This document shows positions 4,418 to 46,734 of a DNA stretch of 64,000 bases, piece after piece. This DNA is from a phage: the NCBI GenBank assembly GCA_015370545.1, contig GCA_015370545.1_3932.1; one strand, 5' to 3'. The position numbers were made by a program, and so were the translations under genes. The notes beneath the pieces are model-generated. The model saw nothing but the letters and a program-made list of their open reading frames with translations, was not told the origin of the DNA and did no database searches. Every line of letters starts with the position of its first letter. Positions within the stretch are counted from its first letter, which is position 1.

Positions 4418-6562
4418 ATGAACAAAGTACAGATTATTAAAAAGAATGGCTCACTTGAAGAACCTGATATCAAAAAAGTTTTAGCAGCAGTAACTAAGTC
4501 AGCTAACAGGGTTGGGTATAAAGAACTTCCACCAGATGTTACCCAAGCTCTTGAGTCAGCATTCATGAGGATTCTGGTGAAGTCCACTAAGCAGAATAAT
4601 TTGCTCATCTCGGTAAATGACATTCACAGTATTGTTGAGGGTGCTTTGGCAGAAGTCAATCACGAGATTTACGAGTCTTACTCAACATATAGAAATTACC
4701 GTAAAGAGGTTGCTCAAAATTGGGATGAGCTTTACCAAAAGACTAGAGACACACTCTTCTTAGGTGACCGTGAAAATGCCAACTTTGACAGCAGTTTAAT
4801 TTCTACAAAAGGTTCAATTATTCGTGGTTATCTGACTAAAGAAATCTTTAAACAATACCATTTAACACCAGAGGAACTTGAAGCCATTGAAAAAGGGTTT
4901 ATCTACATCCATGACTTAAGAGACTTAATTTTTGGTGGTATTAACTGCTGCTTGTTTGACATTGGTAAAGTACTGAAAGGTGGCTTTGAAATGTCTGGCA
5001 TCGAATACTGTGAACCGAAGTCTGTACTGTCAGCCTTACAGGTTATTGGTGACGTAGTACTTTCAGCAACTGCACAGCAATTTGGTGGTTTTACTTTAGC
5101 AGAGATTGATAAGGTACTTGTACCGTATGCTAAGAAGTCTCTACGCTATCATGCTGAGAAAGCATCATCTTATGGTATTCCTAAAGAGCATTACCACAAT
5201 TATGTAATGGAGCAGTTACAAATTGAACTGACTCAGGGTTTTCAGTCACTTGAGATGAAACTAAATACCGTACCTTGTAGCCGTGGTGATTTTGCATTCA
5301 CAACTTTAACATTTGGTTTACTTGACTCAGATATGTCTAATGAGGATAATCGACTCCAATACATGATTGCAAGTACTCTCCTAGATGTTCGTATGAATGG
5401 ACAAGGCAAGAGCAAAAAACCTGTTGTATTCCCTAAACTGGTTTATATTTATGACCAGAAGAGACATGATGAAAATATCTGTCAAGGCCACCTGTACAGT
5501 AAAGCTATCGAGTGTTGCTCTAAAGCGATGTATCCAGATTTCTTAAGTGTGTCTGGTCATGGTGCTGTAGCAGAGGCTTTTGAGCGTTCTGGTAAGGTAA
5601 TTTCACCGATGGGTTGCAGAGCCTTTTTATCTCCATATCTTAATGAGGGTGGAGAAGAGTTCTACGTTGGTCGTGCTAACATTGGTGCTGTATCTTTGAA
5701 CTTACCAATGATTTACCAGTATTCTAAAGAGAATGGTTTAGATTTCTGGAAAGAGCTTGATAAGTACCTAGAGATGATTCGTAGTTTCCATAAGAAACGC
5801 TACGAAATGATTGCTAATATGCCAGCAAGTTCTAACCCTCTTGCATTCACACAAGGTGGTCTGTACAAAGGAACTAAGAAACCTACTGACAAGGTTGGTT
5901 GGGATATTGTGAAGTCCTTCACAGCTTCTTTTGGTGTTACTGCGCTTGATGAGTTGTCTGTTCTTGCTGAAGGTAAACGACTTCATGAAGTTGGAAGCTA
6001 TAGTTTTGCATATGATGTTCTGGCATACATCAACATGAAAACCGAAGAGTTTAAAAATGAAGATGGCTTCTTATATGCCGTCTATGGTACTCCAGCAGAA
6101 TCACTATGTGGGACTCAGCTAAAACAGTTCAGAGATATGTTTGGCGTTATCAAAGGTGTTTCTGACAAGGAATACTTTACAAACAGTTTCCATATGAATG
6201 TTGCAGCAGACATCTCACCATTTGAGAAGCAGGACTTAGAAGAACCATTCTTCCATATCTGTAGAGGCGGTAGAATCCAGTATGTAAGAGTAGCTAACCC
6301 AGAAAACTTATCAGCACTTAAAAGTTGTATTACAAGAGGGATGTTGAAAGGTTTCTATCAGGGACTTAACTTTGACTTAGCAATCTGTGAGCATTGTGGT
6401 AACAGACCAAAGGCTGATGTTGAAGAATGTGAGGTTTGCCATTCACATGATATCTCTGTGATTAACAGGGTGTGTGGGTATCTTGGATGGACTAAGATTA
6501 AAGGTGAATCCCGAATGAACGATGCAAAAATCGCTGAGATTCGTGACAGAGTTTCTATGTAA
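4418..6562 (+). CDS. nrdD: anaerobic ribonucleotide reductase class III
   Basis: 714 aa; C-terminal CxxC...CxxC zinc ribbon and glycyl-radical motif RVCGYLG. Confidence 0.9.
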   Translation: MNKVQIIKKNGSLEEPDIKKVLAAVTKSANRVGYKELPPDVTQALESAFMRILVKSTKQNNLLISVNDIHSIVEGALAEVNHEIYESYSTYRNYRKEVAQNWDELYQKTRDTLFLGDRENANFDSSLISTKGSIIRGYLTKEIFKQYHLTPEELEAIEKGFIYIHDLRDLIFGGINCCLFDIGKVLKGGFEMSGIEYCEPKSVLSALQVIGDVVLSATAQQFGGFTLAEIDKVLVPYAKKSLRYHAEKASSYGIPKEHYHNYVMEQLQIELTQGFQSLEMKLNTVPCSRGDFAFTTLTFGLLDSDMSNEDNRLQYMIASTLLDVRMNGQGKSKKPVVFPKLVYIYDQKRHDENICQGHLYSKAIECCSKAMYPDFLSVSGHGAVAEAFERSGKVISPMGCRAFLSPYLNEGGEEFYVGRANIGAVSLNLPMIYQYSKENGLDFWKELDKYLEMIRSFHKKRYEMIANMPASSNPLAFTQGGLYKGTKKPTDKVGWDIVKSFTASFGVTALDELSVLAEGKRLHEVGSYSFAYDVLAYINMKTEEFKNEDGFLYAVYGTPAESLCGTQLKQFRDMFGVIKGVSDKEYFTNSFHMNVAADISPFEKQDLEEPFFHICRGGRIQYVRVANPENLSALKSCITRGMLKGFYQGLNFDLAICEHCGNRPKADVEECEVCHSHDISVINRVCGYLGWTKIKGESRMNDAKIAEIRDRVSM

Positions 6563-8856: not shown

Positions 8857-9372
8857 ATGTATCTGTCAAATCTGAAACGTTCGGCTGCAATGTCAGTTCT
8901 AAGACTCAGCTTTGAGGAACGTCAAGAGTTCATTGACTCCCACCAATACGACCCTTCTAACTCAAATCACATGATTCTCTGGAATCGTGAGAGCACTCGT
9001 GAAAGAGCACTATTCCGCTATTACCCACACTACACTATAGATAATTTGTATGAATGTTTTGTTGTGAAGAACACCATTACAGTTCTCAATAAACTTTGCA
9101 GATACACAGATAGTCAATCCTTCACATTAGGTCACCACAAGCCTGTTACAAAAGGTGGTGAACATCACTGTGCAAACTGGTTTATTCAGACTAAAGCTGA
9201 TAATCAAAAGCAAGGAGATAGCCTTCTAAGCACTCCCAAGATGACCTATGAAGAGCAAGAGAAATATATCAAAAATAATATGCCAGATGTGCTTGACAAC
9301 AACTATACAGATTTGGCAATATCTCTCCTGTTGAAGTTCGAGACAGTTTATAGGGCAACTTACAATGGCTAA
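8857..9372 (+). CDS. putative HNH endonuclease
   Basis: HHKPVTKGGEHHCANW...NQKQ resembles the HNH H-H/GG/N pattern. Confidence 0.55.
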   Translation: MYLSNLKRSAAMSVLRLSFEERQEFIDSHQYDPSNSNHMILWNRESTRERALFRYYPHYTIDNLYECFVVKNTITVLNKLCRYTDSQSFTLGHHKPVTKGGEHHCANWFIQTKADNQKQGDSLLSTPKMTYEEQEKYIKNNMPDVLDNNYTDLAISLLLKFETVYRATYNG

Positions 9373-9643
9373 AGAAAAGTGGGAGATTTTACCACTAGTC
9401 AGTGAGGGTGGTAATGGTTGTGAAATGTACATGATACGTGGTCATGTCCCAGAACCAATTGCACTTGAGATGGTAAACAATTTTACAGATGGCTCTTACA
9501 AAGACTTGGGAGAACCAACTGTCAAGCAACAATGGGTTAAACCTGTACCAGACAGCACAGGTAACTGTAGTGTACTTTATCACGTTGTAGACCCTGCAAA
9601 ATGCAAATCTGCAATGGCAGTAACAAACGTAACTTTTGATTGA
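9365..9643 (+). CDS. hypothetical protein
   Basis: 92-aa ORF overlapping upstream stop. Confidence 0.35.
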   Translation: MAKEKWEILPLVSEGGNGCEMYMIRGHVPEPIALEMVNNFTDGSYKDLGEPTVKQQWVKPVPDSTGNCSVLYHVVDPAKCKSAMAVTNVTFD

Positions 9644-9658
9644 GAGAGAGAGAAAACT

Positions 9659-10123
9659 ATGATTTTTTGCAATTCCCAGAAGCATGTAATAGAGATTCTA
9701 TATAAGGAGTTTGGTACAGAGAACACCTTTGACTCAAATGAAGCAATTGATGTACTAAGAGAAAAAAGCCTCTTTATAAGAGGTCAATCAATTAACAATG
9801 CTCGTGGCTACCTAACAGTGCTAAGGCAATCCGGTGTACTGATAACTGTAGGCCAAATAAAAAGTAAGGGGAGACTAAGCATCAACCAGATTAACCGAGC
9901 TTTTATGGAGAAACACCCACAACTATCACGAATGTTAGATGATGGACATGGGGAGGTAAAGAGCCTTCAAAAAACAACCTCGACCGATGTTAATTCAGTT
10001 GACATACAACCAGATGTTAGGTATTTTATTGAGGATGTGATGTTTAAAACAATGGATGAAGCAGTTGAACACTGTAAAAAACATCTGATTAAAGTTAAAC
10101 GTGCAAAGATTGTTTGGGAATAA
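9659..10123 (+). CDS. hypothetical protein, tandem paralog 1
   Basis: 154 aa; shares ILYKEFGT..FDSNEAI and C-terminal YFI..MF.T..AVE.CKK..IK.KR.KI.WE with 10157-10609. Confidence 0.5.
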   Translation: MIFCNSQKHVIEILYKEFGTENTFDSNEAIDVLREKSLFIRGQSINNARGYLTVLRQSGVLITVGQIKSKGRLSINQINRAFMEKHPQLSRMLDDGHGEVKSLQKTTSTDVNSVDIQPDVRYFIEDVMFKTMDEAVEHCKKHLIKVKRAKIVWE

Positions 10124-10156
10124 TACTTCAAAAACTTCTATTGAGAGAAAAAGAAC

Positions 10157-16365: not shown

Positions 16366-17475
16366 ATGACTACTAAAACTAAAGCACAGATTGACGCAGA
16401 AATTTACAAACTGGTAAAAGAAGGTAAGCTGACCAAAACAGCTATTGCACAGAAATTTAACACTTCAACCCGTTCAGTTGGTCGTGCTGTAGAGCGTCAT
16501 GAAGCAACCCTAAAAGGGAATAAAAAGGCAACTTCTACACCAGCTACGAAGACTTTGAAACAAGTTGCTAAGACTTTTAAAAAGAAAGCTGGCAAACAAG
16601 TTGAAAAGGTCGTTAAAGACACTGTACAGAAAGCTCCAGTAAATAAACTGCACGAAGCTATGCAGAAAGATGACAAGATTGAGTACATGATTACTGGTGA
16701 TTCTGTAATTATGACTTATGGTTCAGAATCTGAAATTGTTGAGTCTACTCATCCGAACTATCAAGAGATTGTAGTTCATGTTGTGAAAGGTGAGTTCAAG
16801 AAAGCATTTGAACTGATGAACATTCGTAAGTCTATCGAAAACTTCACTCAGGGTGCTATCACAATCAAAGGCGACAAGCTATTCTACGGTGCTGTTGAGA
16901 TGCGTTCTACTCTGGTTGACCGTATTCTTCACATGATGAAAACTGGTGATAAAGGTTTTGAACGACTTGTAATGTTCTTCGAAAAACTGATGGAAAACCC
17001 ATCTAAAGATTCTGTAGAACAACTTTGGGGATTTGTATCTCACCTTGATGTTGAAATTGATGAAGAAGGTTACATCATTGGTTGGAAGAAAGTCTCTACT
17101 CGTGAAGGAAAGCTGGTTGACTCTCACACCTACAAAGTGCCTAATGATTTGGGTAACATTGTAGAAATGCCACGTTGGATGGTTGATAATAACCGTAACG
17201 TAACTTGCTCTCAAGGTCTTCATGTTGGCGCTTGGGATTATGTTCGTTGCTTCTCAGGTGATACCATCCTGAAGGTTCGTGTCCATCCACGAGATGTTGT
17301 ATCCGTACCAACTGATTACAACGATATGAAGATGCGTTCCTCTCGTTATGAAGTTGCAGCAATCGTTGATAATCAACGTAAAGTGCTGGAAGCATGGGAC
17401 GGTAAGACTGAAGCTTTGCATGTCATCGTTGGCACTGCTGGTGAACTCATCTCTCAACGTAAACGTGAAATCTAA
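16366..17475 (+). CDS. rIIB: rIIB-like protein
   Basis: 369 aa directly downstream of the rIIA-like gene; call is by position and size only. Confidence 0.5.
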   Translation: MTTKTKAQIDAEIYKLVKEGKLTKTAIAQKFNTSTRSVGRAVERHEATLKGNKKATSTPATKTLKQVAKTFKKKAGKQVEKVVKDTVQKAPVNKLHEAMQKDDKIEYMITGDSVIMTYGSESEIVESTHPNYQEIVVHVVKGEFKKAFELMNIRKSIENFTQGAITIKGDKLFYGAVEMRSTLVDRILHMMKTGDKGFERLVMFFEKLMENPSKDSVEQLWGFVSHLDVEIDEEGYIIGWKKVSTREGKLVDSHTYKVPNDLGNIVEMPRWMVDNNRNVTCSQGLHVGAWDYVRCFSGDTILKVRVHPRDVVSVPTDYNDMKMRSSRYEVAAIVDNQRKVLEAWDGKTEALHVIVGTAGELISQRKREI

Positions 17476-17490
17476 TAAGTAATTTCTTAA

Positions 17491-17516
17491 AAGGCTGCTT
17501 CGGCGGCCTTTTTTAT
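17491..17516 (+). terminator. intrinsic terminator
   Basis: AAGGCTGC-TTCG-GCGGCCTT hairpin followed by TTTTTATTT. Confidence 0.7.
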
Positions 17517-17575
17517 TTGTATTTTGTGCAGAGTGCTGTATAATTGTTGTCACGATAAACTAAACAGGAGAACCA

Positions 17576-18124
17576 ATGAAGAAATTGATTCTAGGTTTGT
17601 GCTTAATGTTTACAGCACACTTATCTTATGCAGTTGACTGCCCAGAGCTATCAATTAGCCAAAAAGTGAACATGTTAAAAGCTTACCAGTATGGTGAGAA
17701 TAACATGGGTAAAGGTTGGGGTATCACTCTAGCAGCTATAGCCTTACAAGAGTCAGAGTTAGGTCTGAAGGTAGAAAATAAAAAGACCCATGACTATGGT
17801 ATCTTCCAGAATCACTTGAAGACTGTTGTAAAGCGTAACAAAATTAGTCCTAATGTTGCTAAAAAGAAACTCTTAAAAGATTTTGACTATGCCGCAAAAG
17901 AAACACATAAAGAGCTTGAGTTTTGGACGAAGGTACATGGTCAGCCAAAGTCAAAGAAGACTTTACAAAAAGTTTTAGCATCATATAATGCTGGGTATTC
18001 GTACAAAATCCCTAAAGCTAAGAAATACTCTCAAGATGTCTATAACAATATGAAAGTTATCGCTCAATGTGAATTTGCAACAAACATTTCTAAGGTAAAT
18101 CATGAAAAAATTAAGAAAGTCTGA
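17576..18124 (+). CDS. secreted protein with lytic-transglycosylase-like motif
   Basis: N-terminal signal peptide MKKLILGLCLMFTAHLSYA; ALQESELGL...DYGIFQ resembles the SLT catalytic region. Confidence 0.45.
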   Translation: MKKLILGLCLMFTAHLSYAVDCPELSISQKVNMLKAYQYGENNMGKGWGITLAAIALQESELGLKVENKKTHDYGIFQNHLKTVVKRNKISPNVAKKKLLKDFDYAAKETHKELEFWTKVHGQPKSKKTLQKVLASYNAGYSYKIPKAKKYSQDVYNNMKVIAQCEFATNISKVNHEKIKKV

Positions 18125-22430: not shown

Positions 22431-22811
22431 ATGGCATACCGTGCACCTAAATTCATCAACAAAGACAACTTCCGCAACGCACTGGAGAAGTCACTTGATG
22501 AAAAATTTAACGGCAAATTGATTGTTGTTCACGCATTCAATTTTAAGTATGATATTAACGGGAATAAAATCAACCATTACACGGCAACCATGTTAGATGG
22601 TACGCTATCAAGTGAAAAAGCCGTACTGAATGCACTTGCAGGACGTGGTAAAAACCTGATAAGCTGCAATAAGAGACGTTATCAAGGTGGCGCATATGGT
22701 TATGATGATGCTGTTTACCATCTTGAAAATATGGGCTATTCAGTGGAGAAAGCTGGAGCGTCTCAAATAATTGGTAGTGATGGTTATGTGACAATCTTCA
22801 AAATTAAATAA
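22431..22811 (+). CDS. hypothetical small protein (cassette gene 1)
   Basis: 126-aa ORF behind type A element. Confidence 0.5.
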   Translation: MAYRAPKFINKDNFRNALEKSLDEKFNGKLIVVHAFNFKYDINGNKINHYTATMLDGTLSSEKAVLNALAGRGKNLISCNKRRYQGGAYGYDDAVYHLENMGYSVEKAGASQIIGSDGYVTIFKIK

Positions 22812-22815
22812 AAGT

Positions 22816-22897
22816 ACTTTACAAGGGGCTTATAGTTCGATAAAGTAAGCCCCAGATAAAGAGCTTTATCACTCAATCCTAAATTGGAGATTCAAAA
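22816..22897 (+). promoter_or_regulatory. type B cassette: TTTACA + GC hairpin + conserved SD
   Basis: AGTACTTTACA, hairpin GGGGCTTA...TAAGCCCC, AGATAAAGAGCTTTA...CCTAAATTGGAGATTCAAAA-ATG. Confidence 0.55.
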
Positions 22898-23155
22898 ATG
22901 GCTATTATCAAAAACGTTGTAGTTCCTGCAAAAACTCGTGATGACGCTCGCATCATGGCGAAAAAGTTAGGCGGGAAAGTGGTTGACAACGGAAAACAAT
23001 CTGCTGTAAGATGGAGCGTGAAGGCTGATAAGCAACTAACCTTAAAACGCAGTTCAAACAATCTTTTTAAAGGTGTAAAATCACTCGGTAAAGTGAACGT
23101 GTTTACCAAAAAAGGCTATAAAATGCACTTATCATTAACTGGCAATTTAATCTGA
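22898..23155 (+). CDS. hypothetical small protein (cassette gene 2)
   Basis: 85-aa ORF behind type B element. Confidence 0.5.
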   Translation: MAIIKNVVVPAKTRDDARIMAKKLGGKVVDNGKQSAVRWSVKADKQLTLKRSSNNLFKGVKSLGKVNVFTKKGYKMHLSLTGNLI

Positions 23156-23163
23156 TAAAGTAC

Positions 23164-23245
23164 TTTACAGGGGGCTTAAAAGCTGATATCTTAAGCCCCA
23201 GATAAAGAGCTTTACCACTCAATCCTTAAACTAGGAGATTCAAAA
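23164..23245 (+). promoter_or_regulatory. type B cassette
   Basis: same architecture as 22816-22897. Confidence 0.55.
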
Positions 23246-23758
23246 ATGAAAACTGTAGAAGCTACCTTTGAAGTTGTAAAAGAAAAATTTTCCATCATTT
23301 ACGAAGCTGTTAATTGCTTTGAAGCAAGCCATAACCTTGATAATTGGGAGTTTACAGATGACCATCAAGGCGGCGTGACTATTAAAAACCCCAACTGTCA
23401 GCGTAATGATTTTAAATATGCAATCCCTTTACATTACAGCCTTAAACAGCTTTCAAGTGACTATGCAAAACAAGGCCGGGAAAATCCATCAAAAGAGGCT
23501 TACATAAGCTTACAGAAAGAACTAGAAAGAGATTTAGAGGCTTCAGAATACAACCTTGCCGCGAAAGTTGTCGATGCAAATGGTCAAACAATTTTAGATA
23601 GTTTTTATATTGGTTACGCTTTCGATTGGTGCTATAGTGACGGCGATGATTTAGAGGATAGACTAAAAGAAGAGGTGAGCAATTCAGACGCAGAATCTGA
23701 AGTATTAGAACGCTTGGAAGCATTAAAAGATTCAGTGATGAATATCTTTAAGAACTAA
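23246..23758 (+). CDS. hypothetical protein (cassette gene 3)
   Basis: 170-aa ORF behind type B element. Confidence 0.5.
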   Translation: MKTVEATFEVVKEKFSIIYEAVNCFEASHNLDNWEFTDDHQGGVTIKNPNCQRNDFKYAIPLHYSLKQLSSDYAKQGRENPSKEAYISLQKELERDLEASEYNLAAKVVDANGQTILDSFYIGYAFDWCYSDGDDLEDRLKEEVSNSDAESEVLERLEALKDSVMNIFKN

Positions 23759-23767
23759 ATAGATTTC

Positions 23768-23845
23768 TTTACACGGGGCTATCAAGCTGATAAGATAGCC
23801 CCAGATAAAGAGATTTATCAACTATCCTAAACTGGAGATTCAAAA
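23768..23845 (+). promoter_or_regulatory. type B cassette
   Basis: TTTACA, hairpin GGGGCTAT...ATAGCCCC, conserved SD. Confidence 0.55.
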
Positions 23846-24142
23846 ATGAAATTATCAAATAAAGTCCGTGAAAATCTAAGCAAGTTACTCAACAAAATTG
23901 ATTTTATCGAGACATCAAGGAATAGTCATGATGTTATGGAATGGTTACACGGAAAAATCAAAGGCCGTCGTGTAGTGATTTGCTTATGGAATAGTTGCAG
24001 GGAATATAAAAAACCTGTATTACAAGTCAATATCTATGATGATACTTTTAAAAGCCCTGTAAAGTCTAAAAGTGATTTATTAGAATCCTATGAGATAACT
24101 GTAAATGGCAAAGTATCAAGTAAAGAGGAAACACCATGTTAA
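23846..24142 (+). CDS. hypothetical small protein (cassette gene 4)
   Basis: 98-aa ORF behind type B element. Confidence 0.5.
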   Translation: MKLSNKVRENLSKLLNKIDFIETSRNSHDVMEWLHGKIKGRRVVICLWNSCREYKKPVLQVNIYDDTFKSPVKSKSDLLESYEITVNGKVSSKEETPC

Positions 24143-24557: not shown

Positions 24558-24830
24558 ATGTATACTACTAACAATGGCCTCACTTTGAACGTCACACTAC
24601 GTCACTATGTAGATGGTGTCATGCACTTTGAAGATTTACAAGCTGAACAACATATCTTAGATTGGCAAGTCGCAGGACTCCAAAAAACTGCTACGGGATA
24701 CGGTAAAAAGATTCCAACTAGTTGGAAAGTTCACTATGAAGGACGTTTGCGCAGAATTTATCAAGATGTGCAAAGCAATAGCGCATCGAGTTACATTATA
24801 GTAAAAGGTGAAAAACTGCATTTAGTATAA
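24558..24830 (+). CDS. hypothetical small protein (cassette gene 6)
   Basis: 90-aa ORF behind type A element. Confidence 0.5.
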   Translation: MYTTNNGLTLNVTLRHYVDGVMHFEDLQAEQHILDWQVAGLQKTATGYGKKIPTSWKVHYEGRLRRIYQDVQSNSASSYIIVKGEKLHLV

Positions 24831-24835
24831 AGTAC

Positions 24836-24915
24836 TTTACATGGGGTTTAAAAGTTGGTATCTTAAGCCCCAGATAAAGAGCTTTACCCCTAAATCCTAA
24901 ATTGGAGATTCAAAA
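24836..24915 (+). promoter_or_regulatory. type B cassette
   Basis: TTTACA, hairpin GGGGTTTA...TAAGCCCC, conserved SD. Confidence 0.55.
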
Positions 24916-25320
24916 ATGGCTATTAATAATCGTGAGTTATCAATCTTAAAAGCACGTTTAACCGTTAATCGAATCAATGTTATCACGTCATCAGCACCAG
25001 ACGAGACATTACACAACATTATCGGGAAGATTCAAGGTGTTATCTTAGACGTTGAGAATGTAAAAAACTCATTAGCAGACGTTGCAGCAGGTGTTACACT
25101 AGACGGCGCACAATATGAAATGATTGACATGTTAGGCAAATCAAAGGTTATGAATAAAGAGTTAGACTTAAAAATGTTTCGATTTGCCGTGAAAGTATGG
25201 CTATCTGTCGAGTATGATGCTAATTTTGCAATTGCTGATTTCTTTGCCACTTGGTTGCAACGTAACTTAACAAATCATGATTTTCGTGATATCTGTGATG
25301 CAATTTACGCAGAACTTTAA
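24916..25320 (+). CDS. hypothetical protein (cassette gene 7)
   Basis: 134-aa ORF behind type B element. Confidence 0.5.
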   Translation: MAINNRELSILKARLTVNRINVITSSAPDETLHNIIGKIQGVILDVENVKNSLADVAAGVTLDGAQYEMIDMLGKSKVMNKELDLKMFRFAVKVWLSVEYDANFAIADFFATWLQRNLTNHDFRDICDAIYAEL

Positions 25321-27774: not shown

Positions 27775-27841
27775 ATTACTAATCAACGGGGAGGGAATGA
27801 CCTTCCCACTAAACAAAGTCCTAAACTGGAGAATCTAAATT
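27749..27841 (+). promoter_or_regulatory. type A cassette
   Basis: TTGCAA-17-TAAATT, hairpin GGGGAGGG-AATGA-CCTTCCC, conserved SD. Confidence 0.55.
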
Positions 27842-28090
27842 ATGTCAACTATCCGCGTAACTGTTAATGCTTATGGCTGCCACAAACTTGATGCAAAATT
27901 CGATATCGGTGGAACAGATAACACCTTTGACCTTATCAAAATGCTGATTCAGCAGGTGATACCAGATTATAACCCTACTGATGACTTCTGGAAAGATGCC
28001 GTAAAAGAAGCCATAAACGAGGAATCTCACTACCATTATTGGGGTGACTTGATTGTCTCTCTATACTACAGCAAACAAGGCTACAACTAA
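27842..28090 (+). CDS. hypothetical small protein (cassette gene 13)
   Basis: 82-aa ORF behind type A element. Confidence 0.5.
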   Translation: MSTIRVTVNAYGCHKLDAKFDIGGTDNTFDLIKMLIQQVIPDYNPTDDFWKDAVKEAINEESHYHYWGDLIVSLYYSKQGYN

Positions 28091-28128
28091 TCGACGCAAC
28101 GGGGCTAAATAGCCCCAGATACCTTTAC

Positions 28129-28152
28129 AGCCCCTTAAATGGGGCTTTTTTA
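28129..28152 (+). terminator. intrinsic terminator closing the cassette array
   Basis: AGCCCC-TTAAAT-GGGGCT hairpin followed by TTTTTT. Confidence 0.7.
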
Positions 28153-29756
28153 CGTCTATCGAATCCTTATACAATCCCTTTCCCTTTCCTTTCTAGAATC
28201 TTATCAGACCTTAAAAAGCAATAACTCTATAGTCTACTCTATAACCTCTTATCAAATCAACTTAAATATAAGCCAATAACCCCAGAAAGGGGATGGCCCA
28301 TTAAAACGCTCTATAAAGCTCTATAACAGCCTTATCAACCTAACTTAAGCAATCATATTAACCCACTCTAAAAAGCCCTTTATAGAGCTTCCCAGAGCCT
28401 TAAAAGAATCTTATAAGGGTGAAAGCTTATAGGCTGGCTAGTATCTTGTGAATAACTAAACAATCCCCTTGATAGTCACTAAAAAGCATGTTATAGGGGC
28501 TATAAAGTTACTTCAAAGTAACGTAAAAAAGGCTATAAAGTTACGTAAATGCTAGCCCCCTTAACATTTTCTTAACAATTTCTTAACAATCCCTACATAG
28601 TTATGCTTGTTAGAGACTTGTTAGCCCCTTGTTAAATCTCTGTTACAACCATGTAAAAGCCTTGTAAGAACCTTTGACATAGCCTTAAAAGCCCTGTAAA
28701 GCCCTATAAAGAGCTATCCATACAGTTGGGCTGTAGTTACTAGGGAGAGACTTAAAAGGGGCTATACAGAGCTATAGAGGGCTTTTAAGAGGTATGTTTA
28801 AAGAATCACTAAGAATCAAAGGGAACGATAAGAAAAGAGATAGTGACCATGTTAATAGCTTGTTAAAAAGATTAAACACTTGTTAGAAACTTGTTAATTA
28901 TCCCTACAAAATAACTCTTTAAAATTAACTTGTTAGCTCTTGTTAGTCATCTGTTAAGACTCTGTAAAGACTATTCAGCACTTGTTAGAAAACTGTTAAG
29001 TTCTTGTTAGTTCTGTTAAGAAACTGTTAAGACCTTTGGAGAGTTGTTAAGAGCTTGAGAGAGTTGTTAAGAGATTGTTAAGGATATTTTAAAATTCTGC
29101 AAAGTACTTGTAAGGGAGCTGTTAAGGGCTACCAAGCAGATATACATCTTCTACAGATATTTTTCAGTTCCTTCAAAGACCCTAAAAAATGACTTGATAG
29201 CCCTATTTTATAAAAATTTTAAAATTCTGAATAATTACCTAGACAGTCTTTTAAAAATACAGGTAGAAACAGGCTTATAAGATACCTTGTTAGTACCGTG
29301 TTAGACCTTGTGAGATAAGGTCTGTGAAGATATTCCTGTTAAGTTTGTTAAAACAGTCTATATAGAGGCTTAGTAGTACCTAGTGAACATCTATAGAGGG
29401 TATCATAGCTAACCTAGAGATTAAGAGGTGTATAGGGGCTTCTAAGAGGGTATAGAGAGATGGTTAAGGTGATTGTATAGGTTGTTAAGAAGGATTGTTA
29501 GAAGAGTGTTTAGAGGGCTATTTAGAAGGGTTATACAGAGGGCTATTAAGACCACTAGATAGTTACTAAGATACTATATAGTACTATATAACTATATAGA
29601 GAGTAAGATTAAGAAGGTTGTTAAGAAGGATAGATATCTTATTCACATATGATGGTGACCCAGAGGTTGGGACAACCGATAAAATTTTATAAAAATATAA
29701 ATTTCGTAAATTTTACTCAATAAAAAGCCCCCAATTAAGGAGGCTCTTAAGATATT
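28153..29756. repeat. ORF-free region dense in short direct repeats (iteron-like)
   Basis: no ORF of 60 aa or more in 1.6 kb; roughly 25-30 copies by eye of CTTGTTAG / CTGTTAAG / GTTGTTAAGA, plus GCTATAAAG, CCTTAAAAG and TTTTAAAATTCTG repeats. Confidence 0.7.
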
Positions 29757-30305
29757 TTAAATCAGTGTTTCCAGAACTGTTTTTAGTGATGACTTGGTTG
29801 TCTGATAAAAATGAGTAAAGCCGTTGTTGTTATCAAATACCTGCATCATGATATCATCTCCCTTGATTGGGTACACTCGGATATCATAGTGAAAACCATT
29901 AAAGACACAAGAGCCATTACAGAATGCACTAAAGTCATCCACTGAGATATACTCTTCATGTCCTGTGATTTTTATACAGATACCTTTACTCGGTCTCTTA
30001 GGATTAATATCTTCCATCACAGACATATTCTGTCCGCCAAGAGATACCATAGTGACCACTTTACGGTTCTTCTGTCTAAAGTACATTTTAACTTTCTGCA
30101 AAGTGTCTTCATAGAACGGATAAGACTTCTCTACAAAGATTCCTTCAAGTGGCTCTTTACCATTTTCAACTTCTCTGTTATGCCGTACTGCAAAGATAAT
30201 TTGTTCGAACCAGTCAAGATTTTCTTCGGAGAGTGCTTCTCGAATATCCTTCCAGTCAAGGACTAGATAGTTACCTTCAACTTCTTTTAAGTTATCTTTT
30301 TCCAT
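29757..30305 (-). CDS. hypothetical protein
   Basis: start set at internal Met (MEKDNL) to avoid a 62-nt overlap; alternative start at 30380. Confidence 0.4.
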   Translation of the reverse strand: MEKDNLKEVEGNYLVLDWKDIREALSEENLDWFEQIIFAVRHNREVENGKEPLEGIFVEKSYPFYEDTLQKVKMYFRQKNRKVVTMVSLGGQNMSVMEDINPKRPSKGICIKITGHEEYISVDDFSAFCNGSCVFNGFHYDIRVYPIKGDDIMMQVFDNNNGFTHFYQTTKSSLKTVLETLI

Positions 30306-30318
30306 GTTTATCACACCA

Positions 30319-30783
30319 TTATCGTAAAACTTGATATTCTGGTACTGCGAATTTATTACTGTTGTTCTTGATGAGGTCATCTTCTGAAACTAAAAATGTA
30401 ATCCCACATAAGTGTCTGTAACGACTATCATACTCGAATATCTTAAACAGATATTTACCATCATGATAAACCTGTTGCACTTCACCTTCTGCAACAATCT
30501 CGCCTGTAATAAAATTTTTTAGTTTATACACATTACCAACTTTAGGTACTGTTTTCATCTCAGGCTCTTTTAGTGCTACATCTATTTTTGCATCACTGAG
30601 TAGATGAGAACTCTCAAAAGCTACGTGTTTCATATAAGCTTCTGAACATTCCCAGATAAAACAATGTACAAGAACCTTAGCAGCATGTCTTGAACAGTTC
30701 AACTTATCACAAATTTCTGTGTACATCTCATCTTTAGTTGAGTTGTCAAGCATTGCTTTTCGAACTGTTTCTTTAATTTTCAT
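30319..30783 (-). CDS. hypothetical protein
   Basis: 154-aa ORF. Confidence 0.4.
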   Translation of the reverse strand: MKIKETVRKAMLDNSTKDEMYTEICDKLNCSRHAAKVLVHCFIWECSEAYMKHVAFESSHLLSDAKIDVALKEPEMKTVPKVGNVYKLKNFITGEIVAEGEVQQVYHDGKYLFKIFEYDSRYRHLCGITFLVSEDDLIKNNSNKFAVPEYQVLR

Positions 30784-44910: not shown

Positions 44911-45111
44911 ATGAGCGAGACCGTTTATAAAGAACTTTATGAAGCTAATAAGAAGCTAGAATTTATGCAGAATACTATCATGGCAATTGCAGACAGATTA
45001 TCTGTAGCAACAGGTATTGATATTAAAGAAGCATCTATGGATGCACTTCTTGATGCTGTTGATGCAAAGTTCGAAGTTAAGAAAGAAGAGACTGCTACAG
45101 ACTCTGAATAA
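44911..45111 (+). CDS. hypothetical small protein upstream of terminase
   Basis: 66 aa; SD GGAGAAAAC. Confidence 0.45.
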   Translation: MSETVYKELYEANKKLEFMQNTIMAIADRLSVATGIDIKEASMDALLDAVDAKFEVKKEETATDSE

Positions 45112-45132
45112 TTCTATTTGCGGAGGCGCTTA

Positions 45133-46734
45133 ATGGACTTAAATGCTGTTAAGCAGAAGCGAGTGGAAGATGTTAGGAAAGTCCTAGCTGGAGAGTTGGG
45201 GCTTTCTGATGAAGTAAAAGAAATTATCAAATCATTCAGTAAAGACCCCTCTAAATTCCTTCCAACTCAAATTCTGACTTTATTAAGATACACACCAGAC
45301 CAAGTTAGACTTATCTTCAAATTGATGACTGATAAGAACTATGTAGCCCCTCAGCCGGGTTCTCAAGAGGTCTTTTTAAATACTAATGCTGACTTGGTTC
45401 TCTATGGTGGTGCTGCGGGTGCTGGTAAGACTGCTGCATTGTTAATGGACTCTTTAAGGTTTATTGATGACCCTAATTATAATGCTGTATATTTCCGTCG
45501 AAATACAACACAGCTACAAGGTGGTTTGTGGCCTGCTGCAAAGAAACTATTTGGTAAGTTTGGTGGGGTTCCTCACGAGCAGAAGATGACTATCACATTC
45601 CCTTCTGGGGCAACTATCAAGTTTACCTATCTAGAGCTTGAAAAGCACGCTGAAGGTCATCAGGGTATTGAGTATTCAGCTATTTACTTTGACGAAGGTA
45701 CTCACTTCTCTGCTTCACAGATTTCATACCTACAGACTCGTCTACGTTCTGGGGCTGAAGGTGATTCATACATGAAGATTTCTATGAACCCAGACAGAGA
45801 CCACTTTATTTACGATTGGGTAGAACCATTCTTAGATGAAGAAGGTTACCCAGACCCTGAAAAGTGTGGTCGTATTCGTTGGTATGTAATGAATGATGGT
45901 GTTATGGTTTCTGATTGGGAGAGAGACAAGATTCTTGAAATGTTTCCTCTTGAGATTCCTCAAACATATACATTCATCTCTGGTACGATTGATGATAACC
46001 CAATTCTTGACTTCTTAGAACCTAAATATCGTGGTAAGTTGGAAAACAACACCCCTGTAAACGTTGCAAGACTTCGTTTCGGTAACTGGAAGGCTCGTGC
46101 AGAAGGTTCAAACTATTGGCAAAGACAATGGTGTGAAATTGTTGATTCACTCCCAGAAGATGTATTCGATGTCAGAGCATGGGACTTAGCAGCAACTTTA
46201 CCATCTGAGATTAACCCTAACCCAGACTGGACAGCAGGTGTTAAGATGGGTAAATCTAAAAAAGACGGTTGCTATTATATCATTGATGTAGTAAGATTTA
46301 GAGATAGACCCTCTGGAGTCGAAACACAAATTAATTTGACTGCTGAAAGTGACGGTAAGCGAACTGGTATTTTTATCCCTCAAGACCCAGGCGCTGCTGG
46401 TAAATCCTACGCAACATCCCTCATCAGGAAACTTGCCGAGAAAGGTTATCGAGCAAGAGCTAAACCAACAAATAAAGACAAAGTTACCCGATTTGCGGGG
46501 TTTTCTGCTGCTTCTGAAGCTGGACTTGTAAAAGTCTTGAGAGGTAGTTGGAACGAAGCTTACTTTCAAGAACTTGAAGGCTTTTGTGGTGATGGTAAAA
46601 CTAAAGATGACCAAGTGGATGCTACCAGTGATGCTTTCAACAGTCTTAACGAAGTTAAATTATTCAAGCCACCATCAATGGGTGCTCACACAGACTTAGT
46701 GAGAGGAAACCCATATGAGGGGCTTAGACGTTGA
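45133..46734 (+). CDS. terminase large subunit
   Basis: Walker A-like LYGGAAGAGKTAAL; Walker B-like FDEGTHF; start set at ATG 45133 after GGAGG. Confidence 0.8.
   Translation: MDLNAVKQKRVEDVRKVLAGELGLSDEVKEIIKSFSKDPSKFLPTQILTLLRYTPDQVRLIFKLMTDKNYVAPQPGSQEVFLNTNADLVLYGGAAGAGKTAALLMDSLRFIDDPNYNAVYFRRNTTQLQGGLWPAAKKLFGKFGGVPHEQKMTITFPSGATIKFTYLELEKHAEGHQGIEYSAIYFDEGTHFSASQISYLQTRLRSGAEGDSYMKISMNPDRDHFIYDWVEPFLDEEGYPDPEKCGRIRWYVMNDGVMVSDWERDKILEMFPLEIPQTYTFISGTIDDNPILDFLEPKYRGKLENNTPVNVARLRFGNWKARAEGSNYWQRQWCEIVDSLPEDVFDVRAWDLAATLPSEINPNPDWTAGVKMGKSKKDGCYYIIDVVRFRDRPSGVETQINLTAESDGKRTGIFIPQDPGAAGKSYATSLIRKLAEKGYRARAKPTNKDKVTRFAGFSAASEAGLVKVLRGSWNEAYFQELEGFCGDGKTKDDQVDATSDAFNSLNEVKLFKPPSMGAHTDLVRGNPYEGLRR

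Follow-up and report, generated by a model that had tools for sequence, protein, structure and literature searches.

The gene-free region at positions 28153-29756 of the DNA analysed here (the window, a stretch of 64,000 nt) is, as judged from homology, by which its own termini were also placed, the concatemer junction or chromosome-end region of a Felix O1-like myovirus. The window as a whole is the genome of a Felixounavirus. Within the gene-free region, the direct terminal repeat (DTR) consists mainly of about 30 copies of the 5-bp core TGTTA (consensus YTGTTAAG/YTGTTAG) at a pitch of 11 bp, and the match of these repeats to the binding sites of ArcA, an oxygen-sensing response regulator of the host, appears not to have been reported before. 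The best explanation overall, to which we give somewhat better than an even chance, is that a one-sided protein array on the DTR marks the termini for terminase, the binder being ArcA-P or a phage protein. We propose more tentatively, as a reading that falls somewhat short of an even chance, that the Ounavirinae DTR is formed by some 30 helically phased ArcA-P sites, and that the response regulator coats the chromosome ends and helps to define, cut, protect or regulate them. The features of the region are as follows.

28101-28152, plus strand: hairpin GGGGCTAAATAGCCCC followed by a rho-independent terminator, ending the plus-strand array of small early-type genes
28153-28554, unstranded: conserved non-coding flank to the left of the DTR, about 400 bp
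28555-29133, unstranded: the DTR, about 580 bp, placed by homology to end duplications and to the sequenced DTR of UAB_Phi87
28560-28589, minus strand: inverted triplet of TGTTAAG repeats spaced at 11 bp, facing outward, with its end 5 bp from the left terminus
28606-28711, plus strand: six direct repeats at an exact 11-bp pitch, then repeats at 10-bp pitch
28684-28790, unstranded: central DTR segment with few TGTTA cores and a 28-nt inverted repeat
28849-29126, plus strand: main array, 18 repeats of TGTTA(A)G or TGTAA in direct orientation, all facing the right terminus
29134-29148, unstranded: block AAGCAGATATACATC directly outside the right terminus, invariant in ten aligned phages
29134-29727, unstranded: conserved non-coding flank to the right of the DTR, about 620 bp
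29728-29756, minus strand: terminator of the minus-strand gene block (terminator scan), downstream of the 207-aa gene at 29757-30380

The longest open reading frames in 28153-29756 are of 46, 37, 35 and 30 aa, which bears out the sequence-only reading of this DNA, where the 1.6 kb had been described as free of ORFs at a threshold of 60 aa. The gap is kept in all of the approximately 250 relatives in the phage collection. It had also been described as lying between convergent gene blocks, and a terminator scan does find terminator-like hairpins that end both blocks, at 28129-28146 (plus strand) and 29742-29728 (minus strand). Both border terminators are also annotated in the AYO145A and Moogle records, and the left-hand hairpin and terminator are conserved in three genera. 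The ten neighbouring proteins all belong to families of unknown function by PHROGs and Pfam, with no Pfam domain.

The two flanks differ in composition. The left flank, whose unique sequence comes to lie just within the right end of the chromosome, is pyrimidine-rich on the plus strand, with phased CTCTATA, CTATAAAG and CTTATCA repeats and with nested inverted repeats at 28506-28546. The right flank, likewise unique and lying just within the left end, is purine-rich on the plus strand and 93-100% identical within a genus. It holds additional TGTTA clusters at 29286-29351, 29481-29525 and 29617-29625, TATAGAG repeats at 29361, 29392, 29451 and 29595, and an A+T block at 29204-29240. The TATAGAG/CTCTATA family has 10 copies against about 0.12 expected, and the secondary repeats noted earlier (GCTATAAAGTTAC and TTTTAAAATTCTG, two copies each, and CCTTAAAAG) were found again. 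Between genera the non-coding region is about 80% identical, whereas the adjacent 207-aa protein is just 48-50% identical.

High sequence conservation, above all at 29134-29727, is what might be expected of a noncoding RNA or an overlooked small protein, and the minus strand folds somewhat better than shuffles (z = -2.5). We nevertheless regard this as the least probable of the readings considered. The z-scores from folding both flanks, the other two being -1.2 and -1.6, were unremarkable, and a promoter scan gave 11 sites against 8.3 expected, which is no enrichment. The best four matches in an Rfam scan of 27800-30100 at a permissive E-value scored 13.7-25.6 bits against gathering thresholds of 51-224, with E-values of at least 0.41. 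No ORF exceeds 46 aa, the 11- and 22-bp indels seen among relatives would disrupt reading frames, and the terminators at both borders point inward.

The positions of the chromosome ends come from homologues. In Ro111lw the first 613 nt are identical to the last 613 nt (100% identity), and in Pr103Blw the same is true of 581 nt (100% identity). Both end duplications map to 28555-29133 and share their boundaries, beginning with GCCCCCTTAACA at the left and finishing with TGTTAAGGGCTACC at the right. The 608-bp DTR of UAB_Phi87, determined by Bal31 and run-off sequencing (PMC4837284, Fig. S1), maps to 28563-29135. The left chromosome end is thus at 28555 from the records, or 28563 from run-off sequencing of UAB_Phi87, and the right end at 29133 or 29135, the two estimates differing by 8 nt at the left and by 2 nt at the right. 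The DTRs of UAB_Phi87 (608 bp), Pr103Blw (581 bp) and Ro111lw (613 bp) are homologues with about 90% identity and the same boundaries. The sequence spanning both boundaries does not vary in three genera, and 12 Kolesnikvirus records start no more than 3 nt from the homologous left boundary. A short DTR has fixed, sequence-specific termini, which are seen here in the records and in the run-off sequencing of homologues, and it places the same segment at both ends of the virion DNA, which is seen in the homologues; the window is a collapsed assembly in which the DTR is present once. The definition of the termini leaves out MET-P1-301, which has a terminal duplication of 544 bp with inset boundaries, and KMM2, which has an end overlap of 64 bp, both being judged assembly-dependent. 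Because the DTR and both chromosome ends lie inside it, the region is associated with the terminal repeat and with packaging, and the earlier suggestion to this effect holds. The published accounts of Felix O1-like DTRs that were consulted give only length and sequence; none of them speaks of an array of repeats, of its phasing or of a similarity to the sites of a host regulator.

Within the DTR, the central segment carries its inverted repeat at 28684-28711 and 28762-28789, the two arms being 82% complementary. The invariant block at 29134-29148, of which AAGCAGATATACA is kept even in the Erwinia phage phiEa21-4, is a candidate for the terminase cleavage context.

In 28153-29756 the core TGTTA occurs 28 times on the plus strand and 4 times on the minus strand. 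The plus-strand count compares with 2.6 ± 1.5 in dinucleotide shuffles and with 2.6 per equal length elsewhere in the window. YTGTTAR is found 24 times against 1.0 expected, and TTGTTA is enriched with a Poisson p of 6e-20. Of the spacings between neighbouring plus-strand copies, ten are of 11 bp, four of 20-22 bp and three of 9-10 bp. The initial description of some 25-30 copies, counted by eye, chiefly in one orientation and often 10-11 bp apart, is therefore confirmed in number, orientation and spacing, and the comparison with shuffled sequence that had been called for shows a strong excess.

The order and phase of the repeats are regular. The triple repeat at 28560-28589 does not vary within Felixounavirus and hardly varies in Mooglevirus, Suspvirus and phiEa21-4. 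The six repeats from 28606 run TGTTAG, TGTTAG, TGTTAA, TGTTAC, TGTAAA, TGTAAG, after which come CTTAAAAG, CTGTAAAG and CTATAAAG with a pitch of 10 bp. In the main array the phasing is 10.3 bp (R = 0.83), and the final repeat ends 7 bp from the right terminus. Long-range phasing of the repeats is 10.3-10.4 bp, with R of 0.76-0.83 against a null 99th percentile of 0.58-0.67, and the phase is held over 530 bp, corresponding to one face of the helix for about 50 turns. Because the three left-edge copies are inverted and the remainder are direct, the outermost repeats at both edges point outward, 5-7 bp from the termini. The same architecture is found in phiEa21-4, where 8 boxes lie on the minus strand in the left half of the DTR and 6 on the plus strand in its right half. 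The TGTTA columns are 97% conserved, against 84% for other DTR columns (Mann-Whitney p = 1e-9); position by position across ten phages, the core columns reach 95-96% and the positions flanking the cores 81-87%. All nine DTR indels of at least 3 nt are 11, 22 or 33 bp long. When IMG/VR was scanned for four copies of TGTTA spaced 11 bp apart, extended arrays in which the spacers vary were confined, among the matches listed, to contigs of Ounavirinae size; the other matches listed were plain 11-bp tandem repeats or small unrelated clusters.

Direct repeats in a large non-coding region beside an A+T-rich block (29204-29240) might also be the iterons of a phage replication origin, which was the first candidate named when the sequence was read. 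Gene orientation and GC skew switch at the region, and the DnaA box TTATNCACA is matched at 28447-28455 (minus strand) and 29639-29647 (plus strand), two matches against 0.18 expected. However, iterons of an origin are 17-22 bp long and lie beside an initiator gene, whereas here a core of 5-7 bp recurs every 11 bp, and no initiator (Rep-like) gene is found among the ten neighbouring proteins. The change in GC skew tracks the direction of transcription, the DnaA-box matches (TTATTCACA) are not kept in Mooglevirus, and the limits of the array coincide exactly with the two chromosome ends, to which its repeats are oriented. An iteron origin thus seems highly improbable. Two of the four functions first proposed, terminal-repeat or packaging region and binding-site array, have stood, while the replication origin and the noncoding RNA are unsupported.

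The binding-site array is very probably correct, and its grammar is that of ArcA. Published ArcA sites have a TGTTA core in direct repeats spaced 11 bp from centre to centre, with extra repeats at 11 or 22 bp, and those on the chromosome have 2-5 repeats each. In the phage, TGTTA is likewise the most conserved element, and the repeats are direct with the spacings given above. The 18-bp matrix for ArcA boxes has been published with a cut-off of 9-10 bits and a mean score of about 15 bits. A matrix was rebuilt from the 115 published E. coli ChIP-seq boxes available to us, and reproduces the published scores (r = 0.994). With this matrix the region has 9 ArcA-type boxes of at least 15 bits, where 1000 shuffles gave 0.11 ± 0.33 and the remaining 62 kb of the window has 3, and 18 of at least 10 bits, compared with 1.55 in shuffles; boxes here thus reach the cut-off as well as the mean. 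The triple repeat at the left edge forms two overlapping boxes of 22.8 and 22.6 bits, both higher than the best of those 115 chromosomal boxes (21.4 bits), and the boxes of the main array score 14-18.8 bits. Seven relatives from four genera have 6-8 ArcA-type boxes of at least 15 bits each.

Other members of the OmpR family recognise different cores: TGTTTA for PhoP, GTTACA for OmpR, CTGTTCATAT for TorR, YTTAAK for PmrA and GTAAA for CpxR. These grammars were set aside because the core differs, the comparison being one of core sequences. Searches of 28153-29756 with the IHF and Fis consensus sequences gave no match. A literature search for an earlier account of the array, or of a link between ArcA and Felix O1, found none in the collection of papers searched. 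The sole related item there is a Salmonella transposon screen in which arcB, not arcA, was among the loci for Felix O1 resistance; the effect extended to a T5-like phage, and the authors ascribed it to RpoS.

A G close behind the core is common in the phage repeats and rare in ArcA boxes. It occupies the first or second base after TGTTA in 21 of the 28 copies, while in the 115 ArcA boxes it is found at the first base in 3 and at the second in 9. The ArcA consensus ATGTTAAAAA is A+T-rich after the core, whereas many of the phage spacers are G+C-rich. Both features count against ArcA as the binder, and the preference for G, visible in the phage consensus TGTTAAGA, might mean that the repeats are recognised only by a phage protein, such as a small terminase ring around which the DTR is wrapped, with the likeness to ArcA sites being coincidental. 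A pitch of 10-11 bp would also fit DNA wrapped around an oligomeric ring. Packaging recognition is normally performed by a phage protein, and directly upstream of the large terminase gene lies a conserved 66-aa ORF, of unknown function by PHROGs and Pfam. We consider this reading rather unlikely, since the G is not conserved above the level of the spacers and the TGTTA core alone is. Moreover, the left-half repeats of phiEa21-4 are without the G, and are textbook-like ArcA boxes of 18-20.5 bits that fit the consensus. It is also unlikely that core, orientation and spacing would all agree exactly with those of one host regulator by chance, and no candidate DNA-binding protein has been identified. 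When all phage records were searched by tblastn with the DNA-binding domain of ArcA, Ounavirinae gave no OmpR-family match, and the same domain gave no match in the 64-kb window.

On the preferred explanation, in which the array marks the DTR for terminase, the repeats would be recognised by a winged-helix protein of the OmpR/PhoB type that polymerises in head-to-tail fashion on a single face of the DTR. The leading candidate for the binder is ArcA-P, because the grammar and the matrix scores are those of ArcA-P; the alternative would be a phage protein of the same specificity. The nucleoprotein array would then mark and delimit the single DTR within replicated concatemers, terminase would nick both edges of the array, on opposite strands, and strand-displacement synthesis would duplicate the DTR, as in T7-type packaging. 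It counts against this explanation that no small terminase subunit, nor any DNA-binding protein, has been identified in these phages. It counts against ArcA in particular that Felix O1 grows well under aeration, a condition in which ArcA is for the most part unphosphorylated and not bound to DNA (PMC4173790). The Salmonella screen, which hit arcB without arcA, and the T5 terminal repeat, which has no such array, also speak against ArcA.

The evidence from ArcA grammar and from the matrix applies equally if the array binds ArcA-P for a purpose other than cutting or packaging. It could act as a decoy, with thousands of high-affinity sites that arise during genome replication, titrate ArcA-P and de-repress genes for respiration and the TCA cycle; as a redox switch by which, when oxygen is absent, replication or packaging is slowed or licensed; or as a cap that shields the ends of freshly injected DNA against exonuclease. 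Some 30 repeats per DTR are far above the number at chromosomal ArcA sites, the strongest ArcA-type boxes lie 5 bp from a physical DNA end, and the phage encodes both aerobic and anaerobic ribonucleotide reductases, which suggests a life in changing oxygen. A pure decoy, however, needs neither a location in the DTR nor outward orientation at the edges nor a helical phase held over 530 bp. That arcB mutants of Salmonella become resistant to Felix O1 would be in keeping with a use of ArcA-P, yet the effect is common to a T5-like phage and the T5 terminal repeat is without an array. Taken as a whole, a function of ArcA-P binding apart from packaging seems improbable to us, about as much so as an exclusively phage-encoded binder.

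Felix O1 is a classic diagnostic and biocontrol phage, and phages related to it are in wide use against Salmonella, E. coli and Erwinia. If the array is a recognition platform, it offers a concrete, mutable target for the study of DTR-type packaging in myoviruses, and would aid genome engineering, rebooting and correct annotation, the last because most of the deposited records inspected open at arbitrary points. If ArcA binds, this would be, as far as we know, the first time that a two-component response regulator is seen to serve an architectural purpose at the ends of a phage chromosome. Packaging, or the condition of the DNA ends, would then be coupled to the oxygen or redox status of the host, which predicts an oxygen-dependent performance of the phage of relevance to gut, food and plant applications. 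The ArcA-P protein, a footprinting protocol and the design of a TGTTA-to-TCATA mutation have already been published for ArcA.

Among known systems, the T7 junction resembles this one in having a short DTR (160 bp in T7) within a non-coding junction with flanking arrays of short repeats, including 13 unidirectional copies of CCTAAAG in and beside the terminal repeat. The T7 ends are presumably made by staggered nicks and strand displacement; we know of no established role in packaging for the short repeats. The motif (CCTAAAG against TGTTAAG) and the pitch (13 bp against 11 bp) differ, there is no sequence homology, and a scan of the T7 junction for ArcA-type boxes found none. In addition, transcription by the phage polymerase crosses the T7 junction, whereas here both flanks are terminated. 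The injection-stop region of T5 (annotated at 9140-10149) is likewise a non-coding, repeat-rich segment of about 1 kb within a terminal repeat. The T5 repeat is however 10 kb long, a scan of it found no TGTTA array and no cluster of ArcA-type boxes, and T5 transfers its DNA in two steps, which is not known for Felix O1.

Packaging sites assisted by host factors are found in lambda, with cosB and IHF, and in P1, with clusters of the TGATCA/G hexamer at pac. As is proposed here, short phased protein-binding elements are clustered beside terminase cleavage sites, with a host architectural co-factor. The IHF consensus WATCAANNNNTTR has no match on either strand of 28153-29756, the phage array would have two cleavage sites at its outer edges and not one between clusters, and the candidate host factor is a redox-controlled response regulator. 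ArcA-P sites of E. coli, such as those at icdA, astC, lpdA and rcsD, have in common with the phage array the weaker TGTAA variants and scores in the range of 15-23 bits on the matrix of published boxes. The chromosomal sites overlap sigma-70 promoters, whereas the phage array has about 30 repeats in a promoter-free DTR, with a preference for G after the core and with spacers richer in G+C. Lastly, ArcA is said to be an accessory protein for Xer recombination at psi of pSC101 (a finding attributed to Colloms et al. in 1998), and ArcA-P reportedly binds oriC (attributed to Lee et al. in 2001). Although psi and oriC have one or a few sites in place of some 30 phased ones, and no phage is involved, they are precedents for an architectural role of ArcA beyond transcription, including on a mobile element.

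The 1.7 kb around the region is matched by 257 phage records, 204 of which cover at least 80% of its length. Every one of these records belongs to a Felix O1-like myovirus of Felixounavirus, Mooglevirus or Suspvirus, with a top identity of 90–92%, and the genes of the window (ribonucleotide reductases, rIIA, rIIB, large terminase subunit and portal protein) are consistent with such a phage; there are also 26 tRNA genes. As the sequence-only reading had stated, 28153–29756 contains no ORF of at least 60 aa, and none of the annotated relatives examined has a credible gene in the corresponding 1.6 kb, which is flanked by a plus-strand array of small genes and a minus-strand block. Inward-facing terminator-like hairpins are present at both edges, in agreement with its placement between terminated convergent gene blocks. 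The repeat-packed, ORF-free region is real. The suggestion that it is a source of noncoding RNA finds no support from Rfam, promoter or folding results.

The early gene array contains a repeated intergenic module (22800–22925, 23150–23270, 23750–23870, 24820–24940 and 28095–28152), in which CTTTACA is followed by a hairpin (GGGGCTTA...TAAGCCCC), AGATAAAGAGCTTTAYC, about 25 nt, and GGAGATTCAAAAATG with the gene start. The arrangement suggests a cassette of promoter and stem-loop, and corresponds to the 57-bp direct repeats described for the Felix O1 genome (PMC3185647). In the final copy, at 28111, no gene follows.

Several database records begin or stop within the region. In Ro111lw the last 613 nt are identical to the first 613 nt, and these ends correspond to positions 28555 and 29133 of the window. 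The Pr103Blw record annotates a 581-bp "short direct terminal repeat" that begins and ends at the same points (left boundary GCCCCCTTAACA..., right boundary ...TGTTAAGGGCTACC), and PhageTerm gave a direct terminal repeat of 581 bp for this phage (PMC8303462). In UAB_Phi87 the ends were located with Bal31 and by run-off sequencing; its published repeat of 608 bp (AACATTTTCTTAACAA... to ...ATGTTAAGGGCTACCAA; PMC4837284 Fig. S1) corresponds to window 28563–29135. The window holds one copy of the direct terminal repeat (DTR), as expected of a collapsed assembly. Because homologous DTRs map inside the region and the window holds one collapsed copy, the homology indicates that the region spans the concatemer junction, as follows.

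Features of the concatemer junction
28153–28554, right-end unique flank
28555–29133, DTR, placed from the end duplications in the homologues Ro111lw and Pr103Blw
29134–29756, left-end unique flank

The earlier proposal of a packaging or terminal-repeat-associated region is thus upheld by the DTRs of all three phages. The DTR of Felix O1-like phages is already published, and known biology accounts for the location of the repeats.

The plus strand of the region has 28 copies of TGTTA and the minus strand 4, against 2.6 ± 1.5 in dinucleotide shuffles and 2.6 per equal length in the remaining window, and when all k-mers are ranked by enrichment, TTGTTA (p = 6e-20), CTTGTTA and TGTTAAG are at the top. 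Adjacent copies are spaced by 11 bp (ten cases) or 20–22 bp (four cases), so that the abundance counted by eye, the prevailing orientation and the frequent 10–11-bp spacing of the earlier reading all stand. Interspersed steps of 9 and 20 bp hold the whole set in phase at 10.3–10.4 bp over 530 bp (R = 0.76–0.83, null 99th percentile 0.58–0.67), and the helix therefore carries all sites on one face. At the left edge three copies are inverted, and all others are direct; the outermost copies thus face outward, at distances of 5 bp (left end) and 7 bp (right end) from the termini. A replication origin with iterons, also suggested earlier, is unlikely because of the unit size, the lack of a detected initiator gene and this orientation tied to the termini, even though there are two DnaA-box matches. 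These are perfect matches to TTATNCACA (both TTATTCACA; 28447–28455, minus strand, and 29639–29647, plus strand; about 0.18 expected), one in each DTR flank and facing each other, and they are unconserved in Mooglevirus.

In an alignment of ten phages from three genera, conservation is 97% in TGTTA columns and 84% in the other DTR columns (p = 1e-9), with positions just outside the core conserved like spacer. All nine indels of at least 3 nt inside the DTR are of 11, 22 or 33 bp. Sequence across both DTR boundaries does not vary, and this includes AAGCAGATATACATC, which lies immediately beyond the right end. Between genera the region is about 80% identical, compared with 48–50% for the adjacent 207-aa protein. 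On the evidence of the alignment, the array is under selection and tied to the termini.

The architecture extends to the distant genus Kolesnikvirus. Erwinia phage phiEa21-4 has a syntenic gap (16472–17912) with 17 direct and 8 inverted copies of TGTTAA; its left boundary (GGTTA|GCCACTTTTACATTT) is conserved, and on the right it has the block AAGCAGATATACA. Of the Kolesnikvirus records, twelve begin no more than 3 nt from the left terminus predicted from phiEa21-4 homology, and the Roscha1 record begins exactly there. The predicted DTR has eight minus-strand ArcA-type boxes (described below) in its left half and six plus-strand boxes in its right half, the arrays diverging toward both ends.

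Other repeats are also present. TATAGAG/CTCTATA occurs ten times (about 0.12 expected), with four CTCTATA left of centre (28225–28325) and six TATAGAG right of centre (28381–29601), laid out as a dyad around the DTR. The left flank of phiEa21-4 carries instead 12 CTTCTAA at a pitch of about 11 bp; the flank motif therefore varies between genera, while TGTTA does not. The conserved A+T-rich blocks 29204–29240 and 29680–29700 share TTTTATAAAAAT (inverted repeat I23), and TTTTAAAATTCTG is found at 29086, inside the DTR, and 29217, outside it. Two insert families are seen among the relatives.

Inserts, at window equivalents of alignment positions
28447, 28903, 28930, 22-bp palindromic mini-insert AATTGGTATTGTTACCAATCCC; Ro111lw (loci L005/L006), UAB_Phi87 (L011), Silverhawkium (L012)
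28159, 28463, 29148, insert (AT)GAGATAGRAWTCTATCGAATCC, about 23 bp long and containing an inverted repeat; SUSP1 (L010), Moogle (L009), UAB_Phi87 (L011), Silverhawkium (L012)

The mini-insert differs in position among phages, with up to three copies in Silverhawkium. It brings exactly two 11-bp units and one extra TGTTA core, and so behaves like a small mobile or duplicating cassette. The second family differs in site between genera and is absent from the window.

The E. coli site for phosphorylated ArcA (ArcA-P), a host oxygen-sensing response regulator, consists of direct repeats of the 10-bp element ATGTTAAAAA, with TGTTA most conserved and TGTAA among the weaker variants; repeats are 11 bp apart centre to centre, with further ones at 11 or 22 bp, and chromosomal sites have 2–5 (Park and Kiley; PMC3798270, PMC4173790). 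An 18-bp matrix was rebuilt from 115 published boxes and agrees with published scores (r = 0.994). It finds 18 boxes of at least 10 bits in the region and 9 of at least 15 bits, where 1000 shuffles give means of 1.55 and 0.11 (maximum 2 for the latter); in the remaining 62 kb of the window three boxes reach 15 bits. Two boxes, of 22.8 and 22.6 bits, are formed by the inverted triple repeat at the left terminus, whereas no chromosomal box among the 115 exceeds 21.4. In Felix O1, UAB_Phi87, Mushroom, Moogle, SUSP1, Silverhawkium and phiEa21-4, 6–8 boxes per phage reach 15 bits or more at the corresponding location. Judged by this matrix, the array sites match the ArcA grammar. Among the matches listed from an IMG/VR scan, long variable-spacer arrays occur only in Ounavirinae-size contigs. 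Three unrelated low-G+C viral contigs (loci L087, L128 and L134) have four intergenic TGTTAAG or TGTTACC at 11-bp pitch, a cluster that looks like an operator and not a long array. No description of a TGTTA array or an ArcA link was found in the searchable literature. What is new is the content, a testable variant in which a phage terminal repeat is built as a super-array of phased sites that match those of a host response regulator.

The binder may be ArcA-P itself. No OmpR-family protein was detected by tblastn in Ounavirinae records, and in the same search the ArcA DNA-binding domains of E. coli and Salmonella were 99% identical. A phage protein with ArcA-like specificity is a serious alternative. 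G follows TGTTA at the first or second base in 21 of 28 copies, which is rare in ArcA boxes, and many array spacers are G+C-rich. ArcA is largely unphosphorylated and non-binding under aerobic growth (PMC4173790), and Felix O1 grows well aerobically, which calls for caution on ArcA as the binder. A transposon screen in Salmonella obtained Felix O1 resistance on disrupting arcB, himA, himD (IHF), crp and other loci; arcA was not named, and the arcB hit was common to a T5-like phage and attributed to RpoS (bioRxiv 10.1101/2020.04.27.058388). Despite the himA/himD result, no IHF consensus match was found in the terminal region. Predicted ArcA binding might also serve other uses, namely ArcA-P titration, a redox switch or DNA-end protection.

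Starting from the observed DTR position, the array with its phasing, conservation and orientation relative to the ends, and the match to ArcA grammar, we hypothesise that a winged-helix protein, either ArcA-P or one encoded by the phage, forms a head-to-tail polymer along one face of the DTR. The array would thereby mark the single DTR within concatemers, the terminase would nick opposite strands at its two edges, and strand displacement would then duplicate the repeat, by analogy with T7. The small terminase subunit is unannotated in Felix O1-like phages, and a conserved ORF adjoining the large terminase gene is therefore a positional candidate for it.

Terminase genes
44911–45111, plus strand, conserved 66-aa ORF directly upstream of the large terminase gene (phrog_4397, function unassigned, probably helical)
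45118–46734, large terminase gene

The T7 concatemer junction is the closest analogue in form, with 13 unidirectional copies of CCTAAAG, spaced at 13 bp, within its repeat and next to it, although the two have no common sequence and T7 is without ArcA-type boxes. A box scan found no ArcA-type array in the T7 junction or the T5 terminal repeat. The T5 record (NC_005859, locus L143) has two isolated, very strong ArcA-type boxes in its left terminal repeat, at 5316 (23.7 bits) and 6578 (21.1 bits); the divergent pre-early promoter region (5938–6489) lies some 600 bp from the former. Functional analogues are lambda cosB with IHF and the hexamer clusters of P1 pac; lambda cosB uses IHF, whereas 28153–29756 is without the IHF consensus.
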